Assembly: GCA_965224085.1 (NCBI GenBank)
Contig: CBDCYI010000011.1
Span: forward strand, 1,024,001-1,088,000
Length of the DNA stretch: 64,000 bases
DNA from: Candidatus Marinacidobacterales bacterium
Lineage (GTDB): Bacteria; Acidobacteriota; Vicinamibacteria; Marinacidobacterales; SMYC01
Direction: 5' to 3'
The notes under the pieces are model-generated. The model was not told where the DNA came from and did no database searches. It worked only from the letters and a program-made list of their open reading frames with translations. Position numbers and translations under genes: made by a program. Below are positions 15,700-50,833 of the stretch, piece after piece; position 1 is the stretch's first letter, and each line of letters opens with the position of its first letter.

Positions 15700-15968
15700 C
15701 TTAGTACTAACGACTTATTCTTGTGGACCCTTAGATTCTTGTTTGGTAGTCCTGCCGGTATCCTTAGATCGTTCAACTTATTAAAAAGGGGACGTACCGT
15801 GGACTCCGATCCGAAACAGTCTCTCTCCGCTTCAGACCCAACTGGCTCGTGGGGCGCGCGCCCAGAGCTCAAAGCCGCTAGCGCGGTCGCGCCCTGTGCC
15901 GAATCCTCTCCTGCGCCAGTGGTGCATCCGGTCGTTGCGGCGACAGCGCGCAAGAAGTCGCAGCCTAG

Positions 15969-17971
15969 CCCATGTTTCCCTTTTAGGTCTCTAAGTCATC
16001 ATAAACAAAGGACTGAGATCCGCGGTTTGTCTCTACGCTGACAGCACCTCCTCGGAGAAGGCTGGCGGGTCGCGTTCAACGATTCCGAGTGCAGTCAGGA
16101 TCGAGTTGGCGCGAGCGGTGCCGCGCGTGACGACGCGCTTGGTCCGCCCAGAACCCAGCTGTAAGTCGACGAGCCGGACCGAGCGTAGCGCTTGTAGTGC
16201 CTCGGTTGCGGACAGGTCGAGTTCGGCGACCTTGAGCTTTTTCTCAAGAGCCCGATGCACAAGGAAGGCCAGCGTAGCTACGAAAAGATGTGCCTCCACA
16301 CGCTCATCGGTCTGGTGGTAAACGGGACGCATCTCAATGACATCCTTAAGGCATGAGAAGGCTCGCTCGACCTCGTTTAGGTCCTTGTAAAGGCGCACGG
16401 CGTCGACCGGAGAGAGGTTTTGCTCCTCGGTTTGAATAACGTACTTACCCTCGTAGGCTTGCTCGCGCTTGAGGTTGTCCGGGTGCTCGAAGAAGCGGAA
16501 GCGAGCGTTTTTGTACTCCCAGTCGTAGTAACGGTGACCGTGGTGGCGTGCCTGTATGCGCGCGGCGGCGGCACCGATTTTCTCGGGGGCTTTCAATCGT
16601 CCCTCGCGCACGCGGCGCTCGAGGGCCTCGAATGCCGCACGGGCACGTCCCATGGCCCGCAGCCTCTGCCCGCGCTCGTAGGCGAGCCTTTCGTCGCTGT
16701 GAACGACGAAGATGCGCACGCCAGACTGCTCGGAGCGGACTTCTTGCACACGAGTCTTAGGTGGCTCGGCTTTTTCGCTCACCGTGATGCCACCAGGGCA
16801 GTCGATCCACTCTCCGCTGGCGCGCTCGATGTAACGATAGACCTCCTCGCGCCGTCGTCTTTGCAGCCCGACGAGATAGCCCTGCTTGCGCGAGCGCACC
16901 ACCGCCAGGCTGTCGCTCGTTACCATCCCTCGGTCGCCGACAAAAACCACGCGGTGCAAACCGAATCGTTCGTTGAGATCGTTGAGCACCTGCGGCACCG
17001 TTTTCGCGTCACGCCAGTTGCCGGCGAAAACATGGTGGGCGATCGGCCAACCGTCCACCATCACCAGACCGACAAGCACTTGCCGGTTACGCGGTCTGCG
17101 GTCGCGACTGTAGCCGTGGGCGCCGAGCCCCGGAGGGCCTTGACCTTCGAAGTACGTCGACGTCAGGTCGTAAAACACCATGTCAACCTCAAGCGAAAAC
17201 AGATCCCGCAAGCGCAAAAACAGCTCTTTCTCGATCTGTTCTTTGCGGGCATGCAGCTGGTCGAGCGTTCGGTACCATTGCTTGAGTTGGCGAGACTCCA
17301 CGCGAACCCGCGGGGAGCGACTCGCTCGCCGCTCCCCATCATCGCGCCACTGCGGCACCCACCGCCGCCCCTGCCGGTCGCAGACGAAGTCGGTCTCGAG
17401 CCAGCGCGCCAGACCGTGCTCGCTTGACGGAGCACATAGCCGGTTGGCGACCAGCACCAAAGCTCGCTCGCTTAGCGCCACTCCGTCGCGCTTGCCGCGG
17501 CCTCCGAGCCGGTCGAGAATCTGCTCCAGTCCGAGCTCGCGCCACAGCGTCGCCGTCACCACCATCGGACCCCAATCCCACGCGTCTGCCCCCGCGATCT
17601 GCTCGGCTGCTCGCTCGGTGTCGGCCGGTTCACCGGCCCCAAGCAACCGATTGAGGGAGTCGAGATTGGCAACTAGGAGATCCTTGCGCCCCAAGTTGCA
17701 CACTACGCGTTGCTTCGGCTTGCCGTGCTCCCGATACGACTCGACCAGGCGGACATACTCATGTTGAACCCCTTTGCCGCCTGCGGCCCGAACGATGCGG
17801 AAGAACATAACCTGTCCTCACGCATACTACATATCATTGTCCACGATTACAACGTATTAATGGCGCTCAAAGCACAATATCTGTCTCTACGTTTTGGGCA
17901 AAATTCAACCCCCGTTCCTTTGAATTCAGTCACTTACGAGCGTTAGGGTGCCCATAAAGGGTAAACATGGG
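15969..17971 (-). mobile_element. IS1634-family insertion sequence, copy 1 (2003 bp), flanked by CTAG direct repeat
   Basis: Imperfect terminal IRs CCCATGTTTACCCTTT / CCCATGTTTCCCTTTT; CTAG at 15965-15968 and 17972-17975. Confidence 0.93.
16033..17808 (-). CDS. IS1634-family DDE transposase (591 aa)
   Basis: YDLTSTYFEG, GYSRD.RP..QV, FAGN..D, VGDRG, YKDLNEVERAF..LK, RPVYH, RVEAH. Confidence 0.92.
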   Translation of the reverse strand: MFFRIVRAAGGKGVQHEYVRLVESYREHGKPKQRVVCNLGRKDLLVANLDSLNRLLGAGEPADTERAAEQIAGADAWDWGPMVVTATLWRELGLEQILDRLGGRGKRDGVALSERALVLVANRLCAPSSEHGLARWLETDFVCDRQGRRWVPQWRDDGERRASRSPRVRVESRQLKQWYRTLDQLHARKEQIEKELFLRLRDLFSLEVDMVFYDLTSTYFEGQGPPGLGAHGYSRDRRPRNRQVLVGLVMVDGWPIAHHVFAGNWRDAKTVPQVLNDLNERFGLHRVVFVGDRGMVTSDSLAVVRSRKQGYLVGLQRRRREEVYRYIERASGEWIDCPGGITVSEKAEPPKTRVQEVRSEQSGVRIFVVHSDERLAYERGQRLRAMGRARAAFEALERRVREGRLKAPEKIGAAAARIQARHHGHRYYDWEYKNARFRFFEHPDNLKREQAYEGKYVIQTEEQNLSPVDAVRLYKDLNEVERAFSCLKDVIEMRPVYHQTDERVEAHLFVATLAFLVHRALEKKLKVAELDLSATEALQALRSVRLVDLQLGSGRTKRVVTRGTARANSILTALGIVERDPPAFSEEVLSA

Positions 17972-18606
17972 CTAGCAAAGGCCGTATCATTGCGGTTGGC
18001 GGCGGCAAAGGCGGCGTTGGCAAGAGCCTCATTACGAGCAGCGTCGGGATCTCCCTTGCACGGCACGGCAAGAAAGTGGTGGTTATCGATGCCGACCTCG
18101 GCGGAGCGAATCTCCATACTTGCTTGGGCTTGTCCATACCGTCGCTCACGCTGAGCGATTTCATCAGTCGGCGCGTCGAGTCGATTGACGACGTGATTCT
18201 CGAGACTGGCGTCAAGAACCTCGGACTCATCAGCGGCGCACACGACCATCTCGCCGCGTCGAATCTGAAATATCGTCAGAAAACCCGAATATTGCCCTGT
18301 ATCGCTGCCGTGGACGCCGATTTCGTCTTGCTCGACATCGGTGCTGGGATCTCGTTCAACGTCGTCGACTTCTTTCTCATTGCGGAGCAAGGGCTCCTCG
18401 TCGCGATCCCCGAGCCGAGCTCGATCGAGAACGCCTACCGCTTCCTAAAAATGAGTTTTTACCGTCATCTGTGGCGCGCTTTGAAGTCGAGCCCGGTGCG
18501 CAAAGTAGTTGAGCAAGCGATGGACCAAAAGAATCGCGACGGCATCCGCACGCCCATCGATCTTCTCGACGCTGTGGAGCGTCGCGACAGTGCTACCGGA
18601 CGCTAT

Positions 18607-20609
18607 CCCATGTTTACCCTTTATGGGCACCCTAACGCTCGTAAGTGACTGAATTCAAAGGAACGGGGGTTGAATTTTGCCCAAAACGTAGAGACAGATA
18701 TTGTGCTTTGAGCGCCATTAATACGTTGTAATCGTGGACAATGATATGTAGTATGCGTGAGGACAGGTTATGTTCTTCCGCATCGTTCGGGCCGCAGGCG
18801 GCAAAGGGGTTCAACATGAGTATGTCCGCCTGGTCGAGTCGTATCGGGAGCACGGCAAGCCGAAGCAACGCGTAGTGTGCAACTTGGGGCGCAAGGATCT
18901 CCTAGTTGCCAATCTCGACTCCCTCAATCGGTTGCTTGGGGCCGGTGAACCGGCCGACACCGAGCGAGCAGCCGAGCAGATCGCGGGGGCAGACGCGTGG
19001 GATTGGGGTCCGATGGTGGTGACGGCGACGCTGTGGCGCGAGCTCGGACTGGAGCAGATTCTCGACCGGCTCGGAGGCCGCGGCAAGCGCGACGGAGTGG
19101 CGCTAAGCGAGCGAGCTTTGGTGCTGGTCGCCAACCGGCTATGTGCTCCGTCAAGCGAGCACGGTCTGGCGCGCTGGCTCGAGACCGACTTCGTCTGCGA
19201 CCGGCAGGGGCGGCGGTGGGTGCCGCAGTGGCGCGATGATGGGGAGCGGCGAGCGAGTCGCTCCCCGCGGGTTCGCGTGGAGTCTCGCCAACTCAAGCAA
19301 TGGTACCGAACGCTCGACCAGCTGCATGCCCGCAAAGAACAGATCGAGAAAGAGCTGTTTTTGCGCTTGCGGGATCTGTTTTCGCTTGAGGTTGACATGG
19401 TGTTTTACGACCTGACGTCGACGTACTTCGAAGGTCAAGGCCCTCCGGGGCTCGGCGCCCACGGCTACAGTCGCGACCGCAGACCGCGTAACCGGCAAGT
19501 GCTTGTCGGTCTGGTGATGGTGGACGGTTGGCCGATCGCCCACCATGTTTTCGCCGGCAACTGGCGTGACGCGAAAACGGTGCCGCAGGTGCTCAACGAT
19601 CTCAACGAACGATTCGGTTTGCACCGCGTGGTTTTTGTCGGCGACCGAGGGATGGTAACGAGCGACAGCCTGGCGGTGGTGCGCTCGCGCAAGCAGGGCT
19701 ATCTCGTCGGGCTGCAAAGACGACGGCGCGAGGAGGTCTATCGTTACATCGAGCGCGCCAGCGGAGAGTGGATCGACTGCCCTGGTGGCATCACGGTGAG
19801 CGAAAAAGCCGAGCCACCTAAGACTCGTGTGCAAGAAGTCCGCTCCGAGCAGTCTGGCGTGCGCATCTTCGTCGTTCACAGCGACGAAAGGCTCGCCTAC
19901 GAGCGCGGGCAGAGGCTGCGGGCCATGGGACGTGCCCGTGCGGCATTCGAGGCCCTCGAGCGCCGCGTGCGCGAGGGACGATTGAAAGCCCCCGAGAAAA
20001 TCGGTGCCGCCGCCGCGCGCATACAGGCACGCCACCACGGTCACCGTTACTACGACTGGGAGTACAAAAACGCTCGCTTCCGCTTCTTCGAGCACCCGGA
20101 CAACCTCAAGCGCGAGCAAGCCTACGAGGGTAAGTACGTTATTCAAACCGAGGAGCAAAACCTCTCTCCGGTCGACGCCGTGCGCCTTTACAAGGACCTA
20201 AACGAGGTCGAGCGAGCCTTCTCATGCCTTAAGGATGTCATTGAGATGCATCCCGTTTACCACCAGACCGATGAGCGTGTGGAGGCACATCTTTTCGTAG
20301 CTACGCTGGCCTTCCTTGTGCATCGGGCTCTTGAGAAAAAGCTCAAGGTCGCCGAACTCGACCTGTCCGTAACCGAGGCACTACAAGCGCTACGCTCGGT
20401 CCGGCTCGTCGACTTACAGCTGGGTTCTGGGCGGACCAAGCGCGTCGTCACGCGCGGCACCGCTCGCGCCAACTCGATCCTGACTGCACTCGGAATCGTT
20501 GAACGCGACCCGCCAGCCTTCTCCGAGGAGGTGCTGTCAGCGTAGAGACAAACCGCGGATCTCAGTCCTTTGTTTATGATGACTTAGAGACCTAAAAGGG
20601 AAACATGGG
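18607..20609 (+). mobile_element. IS1634-family insertion sequence, copy 2 (2003 bp), inverted relative to copy 1; flanks CTAT / CTAG
   Basis: Same IRs and length as copy 1; CTAT at 18603-18606, CTAG at 20610-20613. Confidence 0.93.
18770..20545 (+). CDS. IS1634-family DDE transposase (591 aa), two amino-acid differences from copy 1
   Basis: Identical apart from EMRPV>EMHPV and LSATE>LSVTE. Confidence 0.92.
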   Translation: MFFRIVRAAGGKGVQHEYVRLVESYREHGKPKQRVVCNLGRKDLLVANLDSLNRLLGAGEPADTERAAEQIAGADAWDWGPMVVTATLWRELGLEQILDRLGGRGKRDGVALSERALVLVANRLCAPSSEHGLARWLETDFVCDRQGRRWVPQWRDDGERRASRSPRVRVESRQLKQWYRTLDQLHARKEQIEKELFLRLRDLFSLEVDMVFYDLTSTYFEGQGPPGLGAHGYSRDRRPRNRQVLVGLVMVDGWPIAHHVFAGNWRDAKTVPQVLNDLNERFGLHRVVFVGDRGMVTSDSLAVVRSRKQGYLVGLQRRRREEVYRYIERASGEWIDCPGGITVSEKAEPPKTRVQEVRSEQSGVRIFVVHSDERLAYERGQRLRAMGRARAAFEALERRVREGRLKAPEKIGAAAARIQARHHGHRYYDWEYKNARFRFFEHPDNLKREQAYEGKYVIQTEEQNLSPVDAVRLYKDLNEVERAFSCLKDVIEMHPVYHQTDERVEAHLFVATLAFLVHRALEKKLKVAELDLSVTEALQALRSVRLVDLQLGSGRTKRVVTRGTARANSILTALGIVERDPPAFSEEVLSA

Positions 20610-20906
20610 CTAGCTCAAGGAGCAAGCCTTCTCGTTTCGGCCGCGGCTTCTGATCAATCAGGTCCGCTACCTCGAGGACGAGGGTCTCGGCGCGTCGATG
20701 GCCAGCGTCTGCCGTCGCCATCTCGGAATCGCTATCGACGCCATCGGCTCGGTGCGCTTCGACGAGAGCGTTTGGAAGGCGAACCGCAAACGCAGACCTT
20801 TCATGCTCGACTTTCCCGAATCCGCAGCAGGAAGCTCCCTCGAGAGTGTGGCACAGGCTTTGACGTTCGGGCCACCCACTTTAGCGCGCACGGAGAGACG
20901 AAGTTG

Positions 20907-21599
20907 ATGCTACGACGGCTCAGCGAGCAAGACCATTATCAAGTTCTCGAGGTTTCGTACGACGCGAGCTCCGAAGAGATCCAGTCGGCCTTCGAGACGG
21001 CCCGCGACATCTACTCTCACGAAGCGCTCGTTTCCAGCTCGATTCTGTCGGACCGCGAGCGCCGTCGCACGTTCCACCGGATCTCGGAGGCGTATCAGAC
21101 GCTCATTGCTGAAGAAAGCCGCCGTCTCTACGATAAGAGGCTCGGGGTTCCGGAACCGGTCGTGCGCCGGGAGCAAAGGTCGAGGTTCGCCACCGCCGAC
21201 AACGTCGAGGCGACGTCCACGAATGGCGACGTCGCTCCGTCCGAGGCCCACGCTGAGCGGGAGCACGTCTCCGCCGACGATGTCGAGACGCCCGAGAAAG
21301 CGGGGGGCTCGGAGAGTTCCGTGCGCGAGTGCCCGCTACCACTCGAGACGTCCGCAGAAGCGACTGGAGCGTTTCTTAAGGCGGCGCGACAAGCGATGGG
21401 ACTCGAGTTGGCAACCATCTCTAAAGAAACGAAAATCGGCCGCTCGATGCTCGAATATATCGAGAACGAGAGACTCGATCGCCTCCCGGCCGCGGTCTAT
21501 TTGCGCAATTTCACCAGGCAATTTGCCCGTTGTCTCGGGCTCGACGAAGATCAGGTTTCGACGACCTACTTGGAGCGCATCCACCGCCTCCAAAGCTAA
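20907..21599 (+). CDS. DnaJ-like domain plus C-terminal RodZ-type HTH protein
   Basis: DHYQVLEV...EEI...ISEAYQTL...RRLYD (no HPD); GAFLKAARQ..GL.L..IS.ETKI...LEYIE...LPAAVYLR; ATG overlaps ATPase stop (TGATG). Confidence 0.85.
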   Translation: MLRRLSEQDHYQVLEVSYDASSEEIQSAFETARDIYSHEALVSSSILSDRERRRTFHRISEAYQTLIAEESRRLYDKRLGVPEPVVRREQRSRFATADNVEATSTNGDVAPSEAHAEREHVSADDVETPEKAGGSESSVRECPLPLETSAEATGAFLKAARQAMGLELATISKETKIGRSMLEYIENERLDRLPAAVYLRNFTRQFARCLGLDEDQVSTTYLERIHRLQS

Positions 21600-49193: not shown

Positions 49194-50553
49194 GGTTCTG
49201 TTACATAATAATATTTACAAATACGAGTTCGGTAAGAATTAATACCCTCAATCAAGCACGTCGGGGATGGAGAGTGTAATTCCAGTTGCCGTAGAAGGGG
49301 TGGATTTTGAGTCGAAGCTCCTGCATTTCTTCGTTACTGACCTTCTGGCCTGTCTCGTAGGAGTTCTTGTCCAGCATGGCCTTTACCTTCAAGCCGGTTC
49401 GGGTCTTGGTGTTGCCGATAAGATTGACGACCGCCTCGTAGCTCACGAGAGGCCGTCCTTTCCAGTTCATGCTGACAAAGGAGAATAGTCGATGTTCGAT
49501 TTTGTTCCATTTACTGGTTCCCGGTGGATAGTGGCATACGGTGATGGGAATCTTCAGTTGGTCCGATAGCTTTTGGAGGTGGAGCTTCCAGCCTCGCAGC
49601 CGGTTTCCGTTGCTTCCACCGGCGTCCGCGCAAACAAGCAGACGTTTCGCCATCGGATAAGACTTTTTTCCGAGTATGCGCCACCATCTCCGGATGCTTT
49701 CTACCGCGAATTCCGCAGTCTCGTGAGTAATGCCGACGTTGACCAGCGCTTCGTCGCGGGACACATCGTAAGTCCCATAGGGAATTGCTTTGCCCTCAGC
49801 CATACTGGGGAAGTCGTGTACAAGAACCGGCTCACCTCCGCCCTTCTTCTTCCTCCACGTTTTACCCCTGTTTTCAAAGGCTCCTATCAATTCCTTCTTC
49901 TTGGTATCGACGCTCACGACCGGATCCTTGCTTCGCATGAACTTGCTTACTTGCTTGTTGATGTAACGAAACTGTTTGTCCCGATCCGGGTGCTGATCCC
50001 CTTCCAGTCTCTTCACGTTAGCTTGCAGCGAGTAACCCATTTCTCCTAGGCGTCGAGCAACTGTCACGTGCGAGACATCGTGACCTTTGCGTTCAAGCTC
50101 CTCCGCCATCGCTCTCGTGGACTTGTTCGTCCATTTGAGATGCTTCATCGGGTCGCCGGCGGTTCTTTCGTCGAGGATCTTCTTCAGCTGCCGCTCGATT
50201 CTCGGGTCTAACTCCTCGACCCGCTTTCTCCCCCCGCCAGGCTTGCGCACTCGGGCGCTGTCGTCATCAACTATCGGCGCTTTCGCTTTGAGTTCCGCCA
50301 CGCCCTTCATGATGGTCGGCCGCGACATCCCCGTAAGTCGTGACAGCCGACTGACCCCGCCGCGTCCTTCTTCAAGCGCCCGTTGAGCCACAAAAACACG
50401 CGCTTGCGCTTCGTTCAACGTCCCCAGCACCCTCAACCAGTGACGCTCAGACTCTGGTACCTTTCGATCTGTTGCCATCCTCGTATAGTCTCGCAACCAG
50501 CAGAGGATAGCAGCAATGACAGTGTATTGTAAATATTAATATGTAACATGCCC
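49194..50553 (-). mobile_element. ISAzo13-family insertion sequence (1360 bp), 3-bp TAA direct repeat
   Basis: 27-bp imperfect IRs ggttctgttacataataatatttacaa / gggcatgttacatattaatatttacaa; TAA at 49191-49193 and 50554-50556. Confidence 0.9.
49252..50478 (-). CDS. ISAzo13-family transposase
   Basis: GDP...LKWT.KS, GYSLQ.N.K..EG, SVDTKKKE, ADAGGSN, PPGTSKWNKIEHRLFS. Confidence 0.95.
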   Translation of the reverse strand: MATDRKVPESERHWLRVLGTLNEAQARVFVAQRALEEGRGGVSRLSRLTGMSRPTIMKGVAELKAKAPIVDDDSARVRKPGGGRKRVEELDPRIERQLKKILDERTAGDPMKHLKWTNKSTRAMAEELERKGHDVSHVTVARRLGEMGYSLQANVKRLEGDQHPDRDKQFRYINKQVSKFMRSKDPVVSVDTKKKELIGAFENRGKTWRKKKGGGEPVLVHDFPSMAEGKAIPYGTYDVSRDEALVNVGITHETAEFAVESIRRWWRILGKKSYPMAKRLLVCADAGGSNGNRLRGWKLHLQKLSDQLKIPITVCHYPPGTSKWNKIEHRLFSFVSMNWKGRPLVSYEAVVNLIGNTKTRTGLKVKAMLDKNSYETGQKVSNEEMQELRLKIHPFYGNWNYTLHPRRA

Positions 50554-50833
50554 TAAGTAGGCCGGGATGTTCGAGACCGGAAGCACTTCGGGCTTCAGAC
50601 GGATGCCCAACGCTTCGGCCATGAACGTGCGGCGCTTTTGAATCCGGTCCCAAGCTTCCGGATAACTCTGTGCGAAGCCGTTCCGGAGTGGCGCGCCCGC
50701 GAGTGCTAAGCCGTCCTCGATATTCGTCGTGAAGTATGCAGCTCCCGTGGCTGGGATCACGTCGACTTGAAAGGCCATTCCTGAGCGGAGTGCTATCGTC
50801 GAGCCGTCAAAGATCGGCGAGTTGACCCATTCA

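Follow-up and report, generated by a model that had tools for sequence, protein, structure and literature searches.

How does an insertion sequence (IS) come to lie between two different tetranucleotides? The question is raised by a window of 64,000 bases (the whole stretch of DNA analysed, positions 1,024,001 to 1,088,000 of contig CBDCYI010000011.1 from a Candidatus Marinacidobacterales bacterium), in which one gene for an FlhG/MinD-like ATPase carries two copies of an IS1634-type element, 635 base pairs (bp) apart and in opposite orientations. Read in the sense of the element, copy 1 has the form CTAG-CCC...GGG-CTAG and copy 2 the form CTAT-CCC...GGG-CTAG, and the letters given for both in a preliminary description of the locus, with its coordinates for the flanks of copy 2, are confirmed (Table 1). 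The firm result of the analysis is that a fixed 4-bp CTAG flank is a trait of a subclade of IS1634-type elements, and that this clade cuts its target with a CTAG-specific stagger of 4 bases. The single copy flanked by CTAT and CTAG is a hint, not proof, that letters of the donor were carried along with the element.

The interrupted gene and its original target sites

The two copies form the sole long repeat within the window, an inverted pair with arms at 15965-17976 and 18602-20613, and they differ at 2 of 2,003 positions. The element starts with CCCATGTTT and ends with AAACATGGG, and 16 of the 19 terminal bases match. CTAG occurs 51 times in the window against about 100 expected, and because of this rarity its presence at three of the four ends, with a one-base variant at the fourth, is not attributed to chance.

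The target sites were reconstructed by removing the element and one tetramer at each site. At site 2 the frame stays open for 363 codons when the left tetramer is retained, and retention of its right counterpart introduces a stop at codon 266. Across site 1 the intact orthologue P0123 (97% identity in the middle piece) has QPSKG, and across site 2 it has GRYLKE. The residue at site 2 is Tyr in 24 and Phe in 25 of the 62 homologues that could be anchored (66 were examined, 4 were unanchored), and it is Tyr in all 7 of the closest orthologues. Since the orthologues and the open frame carry Tyr at this position, the reconstructed target at site 2 is CTAT, as the preliminary description had deduced, and the G at 20613 is foreign and not target-derived. 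The reconstructed target at site 1 is CTAG.

Three other histories of site 2 were considered and rejected. A flank swap by recombination between the inverted copies is excluded because the middle piece is collinear with the orthologue and not inverted. A site that was originally CTAG, in which the stop came first and the left side reverted later, requires two changes, and the orthologues have Tyr. Intramolecular replicative insertion followed by re-inversion yields on paper a symmetric CTAT/CTAT pair, unlike the data.

The host gene has 11 private residues among 359, spread over all three pieces and including a likely T-to-G change. This decay exceeds the divergence between the two IS copies and suggests either relaxed selection before insertion or homogenised copies. 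The copies are oriented left end to left end, the 635-bp middle piece being an invertible segment that is presently in its original orientation, and both outer ends of the whole 4.6 kb (window 15969-20609) are right ends. Additionally, each end with a CTAG flank reads outward ATG GGC TAG, that is, start, one codon and stop (window 20598-20613 and the matching ends), and CTAT at 20610-20613 instead would give an in-frame read from the end of the element into the last piece of the host gene.

Table 1. Coordinates in the window of the interrupted gene, the two IS copies and their ends (aa, amino acids)
Feature	Position	Strand	Remark
FlhG/MinD-like ATPase gene, first piece	15799..15968	+	start codon set by orthologue P0123
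FlhG/MinD-like gene, middle piece with P-loop (GGKGGVGKS)	17972..18606	+	orientation same as outer pieces
FlhG/MinD-like gene, last piece	20614..20907	+	
IS copy 1	15969..17971	-	2,003 bp; putative donor of copy 2, or its sister
Transposase of copy 1, 591 aa	16033..17808	-	differs from copy 2 at residues 494, 534
CTAG flank, right end of copy 1	15965..15968	+	
CTAG flank, left end of copy 1	17972..17975	+	
IS copy 2	18607..20609	+	2,003 bp, CCC...GGG
Transposase of copy 2, 591 aa	18770..20545	+	IS1634 family model NF033559
Copy 2 left flank CTAT, reconstructed original target tetramer (host codons cgc TAT)	18603..18606	+	
Copy 2 right flank CTAG, 20613 G foreign to target	20610..20613	+	
Copy 2 left terminal inverted repeat	18607..18625	+	16/19 match to right end
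Copy 2 right terminal inverted repeat	20591..20609	-	

A CTAG-flanked subclade of IS1634

The relatives of the element were collected by one motif scan of a genome collection, which gave 42 clade loci, all from metagenome-assembled genomes and distributed over many phyla. Full-length relatives have 45-78% protein identity to the window transposase; the scan contained no locus for the window's own element, and the best relative is 78% identical over the full protein. CTAG is present at 69 of 73 readable ends. The left tetramers, readable in 39 loci, comprise 37 CTAG, 1 CTAA and 1 GTAG, and the right tetramers, readable in 34, comprise 32 CTAG, 1 GTAG and 1 CTTC. Flanks could be paired in 32 loci, of which 29 are CTAG/CTAG, in line with the earlier prediction that relatives would mostly show this pair; the others are CTAA/CTAG (L023), GTAG/GTAG (L031) and CTAG/CTTC (L014). 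Ends cut by a contig end and the right flank of L022 (three bases) were left out of these counts, as were L040 and L044 at their damaged right ends. Short contigs are frequent in this set and may represent collapsed repeats in which different flanks are mixed. Ten pairs have 500 bases or more on each side, and these are 8 CTAG/CTAG pairs together with L023 and L031. The bases that adjoin the tetramer are variable, and in 26 of 28 pairs the exact repeat reaches 4 bp and no further, which excludes other registers (2-bp TA, 3-bp, and 6-bp with CC ends). These registers are also excluded by alignment of the ends with those of relatives that have 6-bp repeats, which fixes the first C. Among proteins that run into the right end, two are informative, P0242 (A-S) and P0244 (T-S), and both are CTAG-compatible.

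Distant elements served as the comparison. IS1634 matches of this kind were present in 30 plasmid records, and 18 elements from 17 of these records were examined; a repeat is readable in 10 of them and is symmetric in all 10, and none is readable in the other 8. Eight of the readable repeats are 6 bp long (one of these, L057, was determined by eye), one is 5 bp and one is 4 bp. The described members of the family have AT-rich repeats of 5-6 bp, or of 8-514 bp for two elements (De Palmenaer et al. 2008, PMC2266710). In a FastTree phylogeny, 11 clade proteins separate from 9 plasmid proteins with a support of 1.0 (L013 and L030 were dropped because they have no usable frame). The contrast between the flank census and the symmetric 5-6-bp repeats of distant and described IS1634 elements makes the fixed CTAG flank a clade trait. 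In the 30 plasmid records there was no protein match above 31% identity, a search of plasmids with the left end of the element gave no match, and the phages searched contained no clade members.

Some further features of these loci were observed. P0242 is a histidine kinase that is cut off by a near-identical copy of the element, and ahead of the junction about 30 residues of its ATPase domain are duplicated internally. The right ends of L040, L044 and L014 (near 2109, 2218 and 2352, respectively, in oriented coordinates) are damaged or truncated a few bases from the tip at most, with unrelated sequence following, which possibly reflects adjacent deletions or secondary insertions. Positions 1-960 of L031 encode a protein of leucine-rich-repeat-like units of about 27 residues that ends just upstream of the GTAG insertion. 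Two plasmid elements that are close on the tree, L059 (NZ_CP046256.1) and L055 (NC_009467.1), have a 4-bp CAAG/CAAG and a 6-bp GCGAGA repeat, respectively, a difference that may come from a variable stagger or from a rearranged flank.

The transposase

The transposase matches the IS1634 family model NF033559 with 330.5 bits (cut-off 100). The IS5 family model gives 21.4 bits, below its cut-off of 110, and the IS701 family model gives no match at E values up to 0.001. The length of 2,003 bp lies at the upper edge of the IS1634 size range of 1,500-2,000 bp, and the ends, CCCATGTT, fit the IS1634 terminal pattern C-----YT. The triad of D214, D292 and E481 is invariant in 25 of 25 aligned proteins, with 188 residues between D292 and E481. 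The two private substitutions of copy 2, R494H and A534V, are both at conserved residues.

The YREK-type motif consists of Y474, L477, E481 and K488, so that a complete YREK is absent. The position of the YREK arginine is Leu in 121 of 121 proteins, and the residue after it is Ser, Asn or Thr in 121 of 121. By the spacing of the Y-x-E-K motif, we take these two positions to be the equivalents of R322 and W323 of Tn5. Given the residues found there, a tight hairpin of the Tn5 type is unlikely for the clade transposase; the motif residues allow a long-loop hairpin and do not demonstrate one.

An AlphaFold2 model of the transposase has a mean predicted local distance difference test score (pLDDT) of 73.6, with values below 50 in the region of the first aspartate. 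The best match of the predicted fold is the Tn5 transposase (Z 16.8, 347 aligned residues, root-mean-square deviation (rmsd) 5.4), and the next among integrases are ISCth4 (Z 10.1) and piggyBac (Z 9.1, rmsd 6.4, 317 aligned residues, rank 29). In Foldseek, 5 Tn5 chains are the only matches with E below 0.001, the best E value being 6.6e-08, and a sequence search of solved structures with the transposase gave no significant match. The protein has no cysteine beyond residue 486, and a cysteine-rich domain at the C terminus is accordingly absent.

Origin of the asymmetric flank

The explanation favoured here, at somewhat less than an even chance, is that a long-loop hairpin gives rise to 4-nucleotide (nt) donor overhangs, which then anneal to the target. 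The Tn5-fold transposase would nick the 3' ends of the element and connect them with the opposite strand at a position four bases into the flank of the donor. Once the resulting long-loop hairpin opened, the donor tetramer would remain as a 5' overhang. If the target is CTAG, these overhangs would pair with the target gaps and ligation alone would suffice, whereas a near-match CTAT target would leave one mismatch per end. Through replication or end-by-end repair, one end would then come to hold the target base and the opposite end the donor base, as seen in copy 2; alternatively, both ends would hold the target base, as in L031. The donor was likely copy 1 or a close sister, and an emptied donor with complementary CTAG ends could reseal scarlessly. 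This reaction path has a parallel in piggyBac, which shares it with Tn5, forms hairpins on the transposon ends by attack four bases into the flank, and is without the tryptophans that form the tight hairpin of Tn5 (PMC7351741). The foreign base in the right flank of copy 2 is the clade consensus base, and carry-over of the donor tetramer would be expected to produce the observed asymmetry in something like one case in two.

Ordinary DDE gap filling would instead have produced CTAT/CTAT, a T in the right flank being replaced by G later on, either through point mutation or through conversion or template switching with copy 1. Such a history is unlikely but deserves serious weight. It agrees with the symmetric GTAG/GTAG pair of L031, with the symmetry of all ten readable repeats among the 18 distant elements, and with a decaying region that holds 2 private changes in copy 2 and 11 private residues in the host gene. 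The G at 20613 also adds one outer base to the 2-kb inverted repeat, which is the direction of template-switch mutations (PMC7202029). At the divergence of copy 2 (about 1 change per 1,000 bases), however, the chance of a specific point change at either flank is about 3-7 in 10,000, with an upper bound of about 1-2 in 1,000. Conversion would need to halt one base past the homology while leaving uncorrected two internal mismatches and an easier inner-flank mismatch, beyond which lie four matching bases. The inverted copies have kept these differences, internal as well as at the inner flank, without homogenisation, which speaks against conversion and against a collapsed-repeat consensus.

The latter would be an error of consensus or polishing, in which the right junction of copy 2 was given the CTAG that is the majority state of other copies. 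The base does sit at a repeat boundary and equals the majority state, and P0242 shows that the protein set includes one or more further near-identical copies, with a right junction compatible with CTAG. The assembly has nevertheless retained copy-specific bases inside copy 2 and at its left flank, and both 591-codon frames and the three pieces of the host gene are free of frameshifts, which leaves such an error improbable.

The non-CTAG pairs among the relatives bear on the same question. L023, on a 9.1-Mb chromosome, has CTAA/CTAG with the same polarity as copy 2, a frameshifted transposase and an intergenic site. L031 lies on a 285-kb contig, also at an intergenic site; its transposase is intact, and the element is flanked by GTAG left and right. 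Frame tests for the original targets of these two loci were uninformative because both sites are intergenic. The right flank of L014 is two bases off CTAG and is probably rearranged. The mismatched flanks thus amount to one anchored asymmetric case in the window, one unanchored asymmetric case (L023) and one symmetric case (L031). The preliminary description had held that near-cognate sites always retain CTAG on one side; L031 contradicts this and is the symmetric kind of case that the description itself had counted as refuting. Its further claim that one end inherits the donor CTAG is supported in part: at the anchored site of copy 2 the foreign base is the clade consensus, whereas L023, decayed and without a reconstructed target, cannot be scored. 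L031 may still be compatible with carry-over if each end is repaired separately, by analogy with the explanation given for an asymmetric piggyBac insertion (PMC8717057).

The same pairs constrain a one-sided scheme, in which CTAG is part of the right end of the element and insertion takes place just after CTAN without duplication, as in core-sequence elements. It fits both window copies and L023 letter for letter. The right end of L031 is GTAG, however, the two ends form symmetric inverted repeats whose register agrees with that of relatives carrying plain 6-bp repeats (CTCAAGTTTGACA versus CCCATGTTTGACA), and the enzyme is a DDE transposase, so that this scheme is very improbable.

Donor letters could also be carried over by a circular intermediate (figure-eight, copy-out/paste-in), whose junction would consist of the right end, CTAG as a 4-bp donor spacer, and the left end; the donor would be retained and there would be no scarless excision. 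This route yields the same mismatched junctions and is in keeping with gains of IS1634 copies without reported donor loss in Acidiphilium (PMC4549789) and Geobacillus (PMC8024623), and the copy-out transposase ISCth4 is among the structural matches to the model. Tn5 is, however, clearly the better match both by Z score and in Foldseek, copy gain would follow equally from cut-and-paste with sister repair, and no end-abutting-end junction was seen in the window or in the 42 loci, although this was not a dedicated search. The circular route is accordingly judged improbable, slightly more so than a consensus error.

Several points weigh against carry-over through 4-nt overhangs. Copy 2 is the only asymmetric site with an established target. 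In L023, which is decayed and intergenic, a later G-to-A change explains CTAA equally well, and the symmetric near-cognate pair of L031 is the plain outcome of gap filling. If copy 2 is as old as the decay of the host gene implies, the chance of the mutation rises to about 0.4-0.9%, and the observed daughter would require ligation of a mismatch at a nick. The fold is nearer to Tn5 than to piggyBac, and loss of the YREK arginine is family-wide, occurring also in members with ordinary repeats (PMC2266710), and is no specific evidence. Finally, IS5 prefers CTAG, yet its near-cognate targets are listed as ordinary duplications in the available part of PMC5493358. The mechanism is therefore attractive and unproven, and it rests on one anchored site with one counter-example.

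Comparison with known systems

The element resembles the IS1634 family as described in PMC2266710 in its family-model score far above cut-off, its long D-E spacer, the missing YREK arginine, the C-----YT ends and the size of about 2 kb. It differs in that the clade forms its own branch and has a fixed 4-bp CTAG flank (29 of 32 pairs) and not AT-rich repeats of 5-6 bp. By its transposase it belongs to IS1634, but without the usual repeat it is an atypical member that represents a variant subclade. The Acidiphilium IS1634 element, with targets ACTAGT, TCTAAA and GATAGA (PMC4549789), shares a preference for CTAG-centred targets, as do the plasmid elements L001 (TCTAGC) and L046 (TCTAGA). In these the repeats are 6 bp long and their outer bases vary; at L001 and L046 the repeats are symmetric, and the protein identity is about 30%. 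The CTAG-centred 6-bp repeats of L001 and L046 are possibly a precursor state or a parallel origin of CTAG recognition.

With piggyBac the clade shares a strict 4-bp palindromic target, and the flanks of copy 2 recall the asymmetric flanks of piggyBac at a non-canonical site (PMC7351741, PMC8717057). The structural match suggests an RNase H fold with an insertion domain as in piggyBac, although Tn5 ranks higher. However, the target is CTAG and not TTAA, the triad is DDE and not DDD, and there is no C-terminal cysteine-rich domain, so that the element is not a member of the piggyBac family, although it may work like one. The hairpin, the overhang and seamless excision have been demonstrated for piggyBac and are putative for the present element. 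That the clade converged on the full piggyBac chemistry, with CTAG targeting, long-loop-hairpin 4-nt overhangs, synthesis-free integration and footprint-free excision by a 591-aa Tn5-fold enzyme on 19-bp ends, is possible but doubtful.

Tn5/IS50 of the IS4 family is the best structural match; it differs in that the present element is without the YREK arginine and has a specific 4-bp flank as opposed to repeats of 8-9 bp (PMC2266710). The IS5 and IS701 families have 4-bp repeats, and IS5 prefers CTAG (15 of 24 listed targets) and can be excised precisely (PMC5493358), but both are separate transposase families whose target is looser than the CTAG of the clade. The available part of PMC5493358 mentions no asymmetric flanks for IS5.

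Within the literature covered, whose scope did not include ISfinder, TnCentral and subscription papers, neither a CTAG-specific IS1634 group nor carry-over of a donor tetramer by a bacterial IS has been described. The text supplements of PMC2266710 contain no CTAG, and its picture items (Figure 3 and Additional file 10) may list IS1634 targets. The mechanism of the IS1634 family is poorly characterised, with repeat lengths from 5 to more than 500 bp, and the firm part of the present result defines a subclade that occurs in many uncultured phyla and whose 4-bp CTAG flank is strict. If carry-over is true, the clade would be a prokaryotic counterpart of the synthesis-free integration of piggyBac and would show how a Tn5-like enzyme moves from a 6-bp target that varies to a palindromic 4-bp target that is fixed. 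It would then also be a potential tool for reversible, scar-free insertion at a tetramer that bacterial genomes seldom contain. A cheap genomic test of carry-over is offered by the asymmetry of flanks at near-match sites.

Other features of the window

The gene downstream of the interrupted one (window 20772-21599) encodes a DnaJ domain and a RodZ-like helix-turn-helix. Additionally, the window contains a second IS, of the ISAzo13 family (NF033519, 547 bits), at 49194-50554, with its transposase at 49252-50496 on the minus strand. This IS has imperfect inverted ends and is flanked by a symmetric 3-bp TAA repeat.

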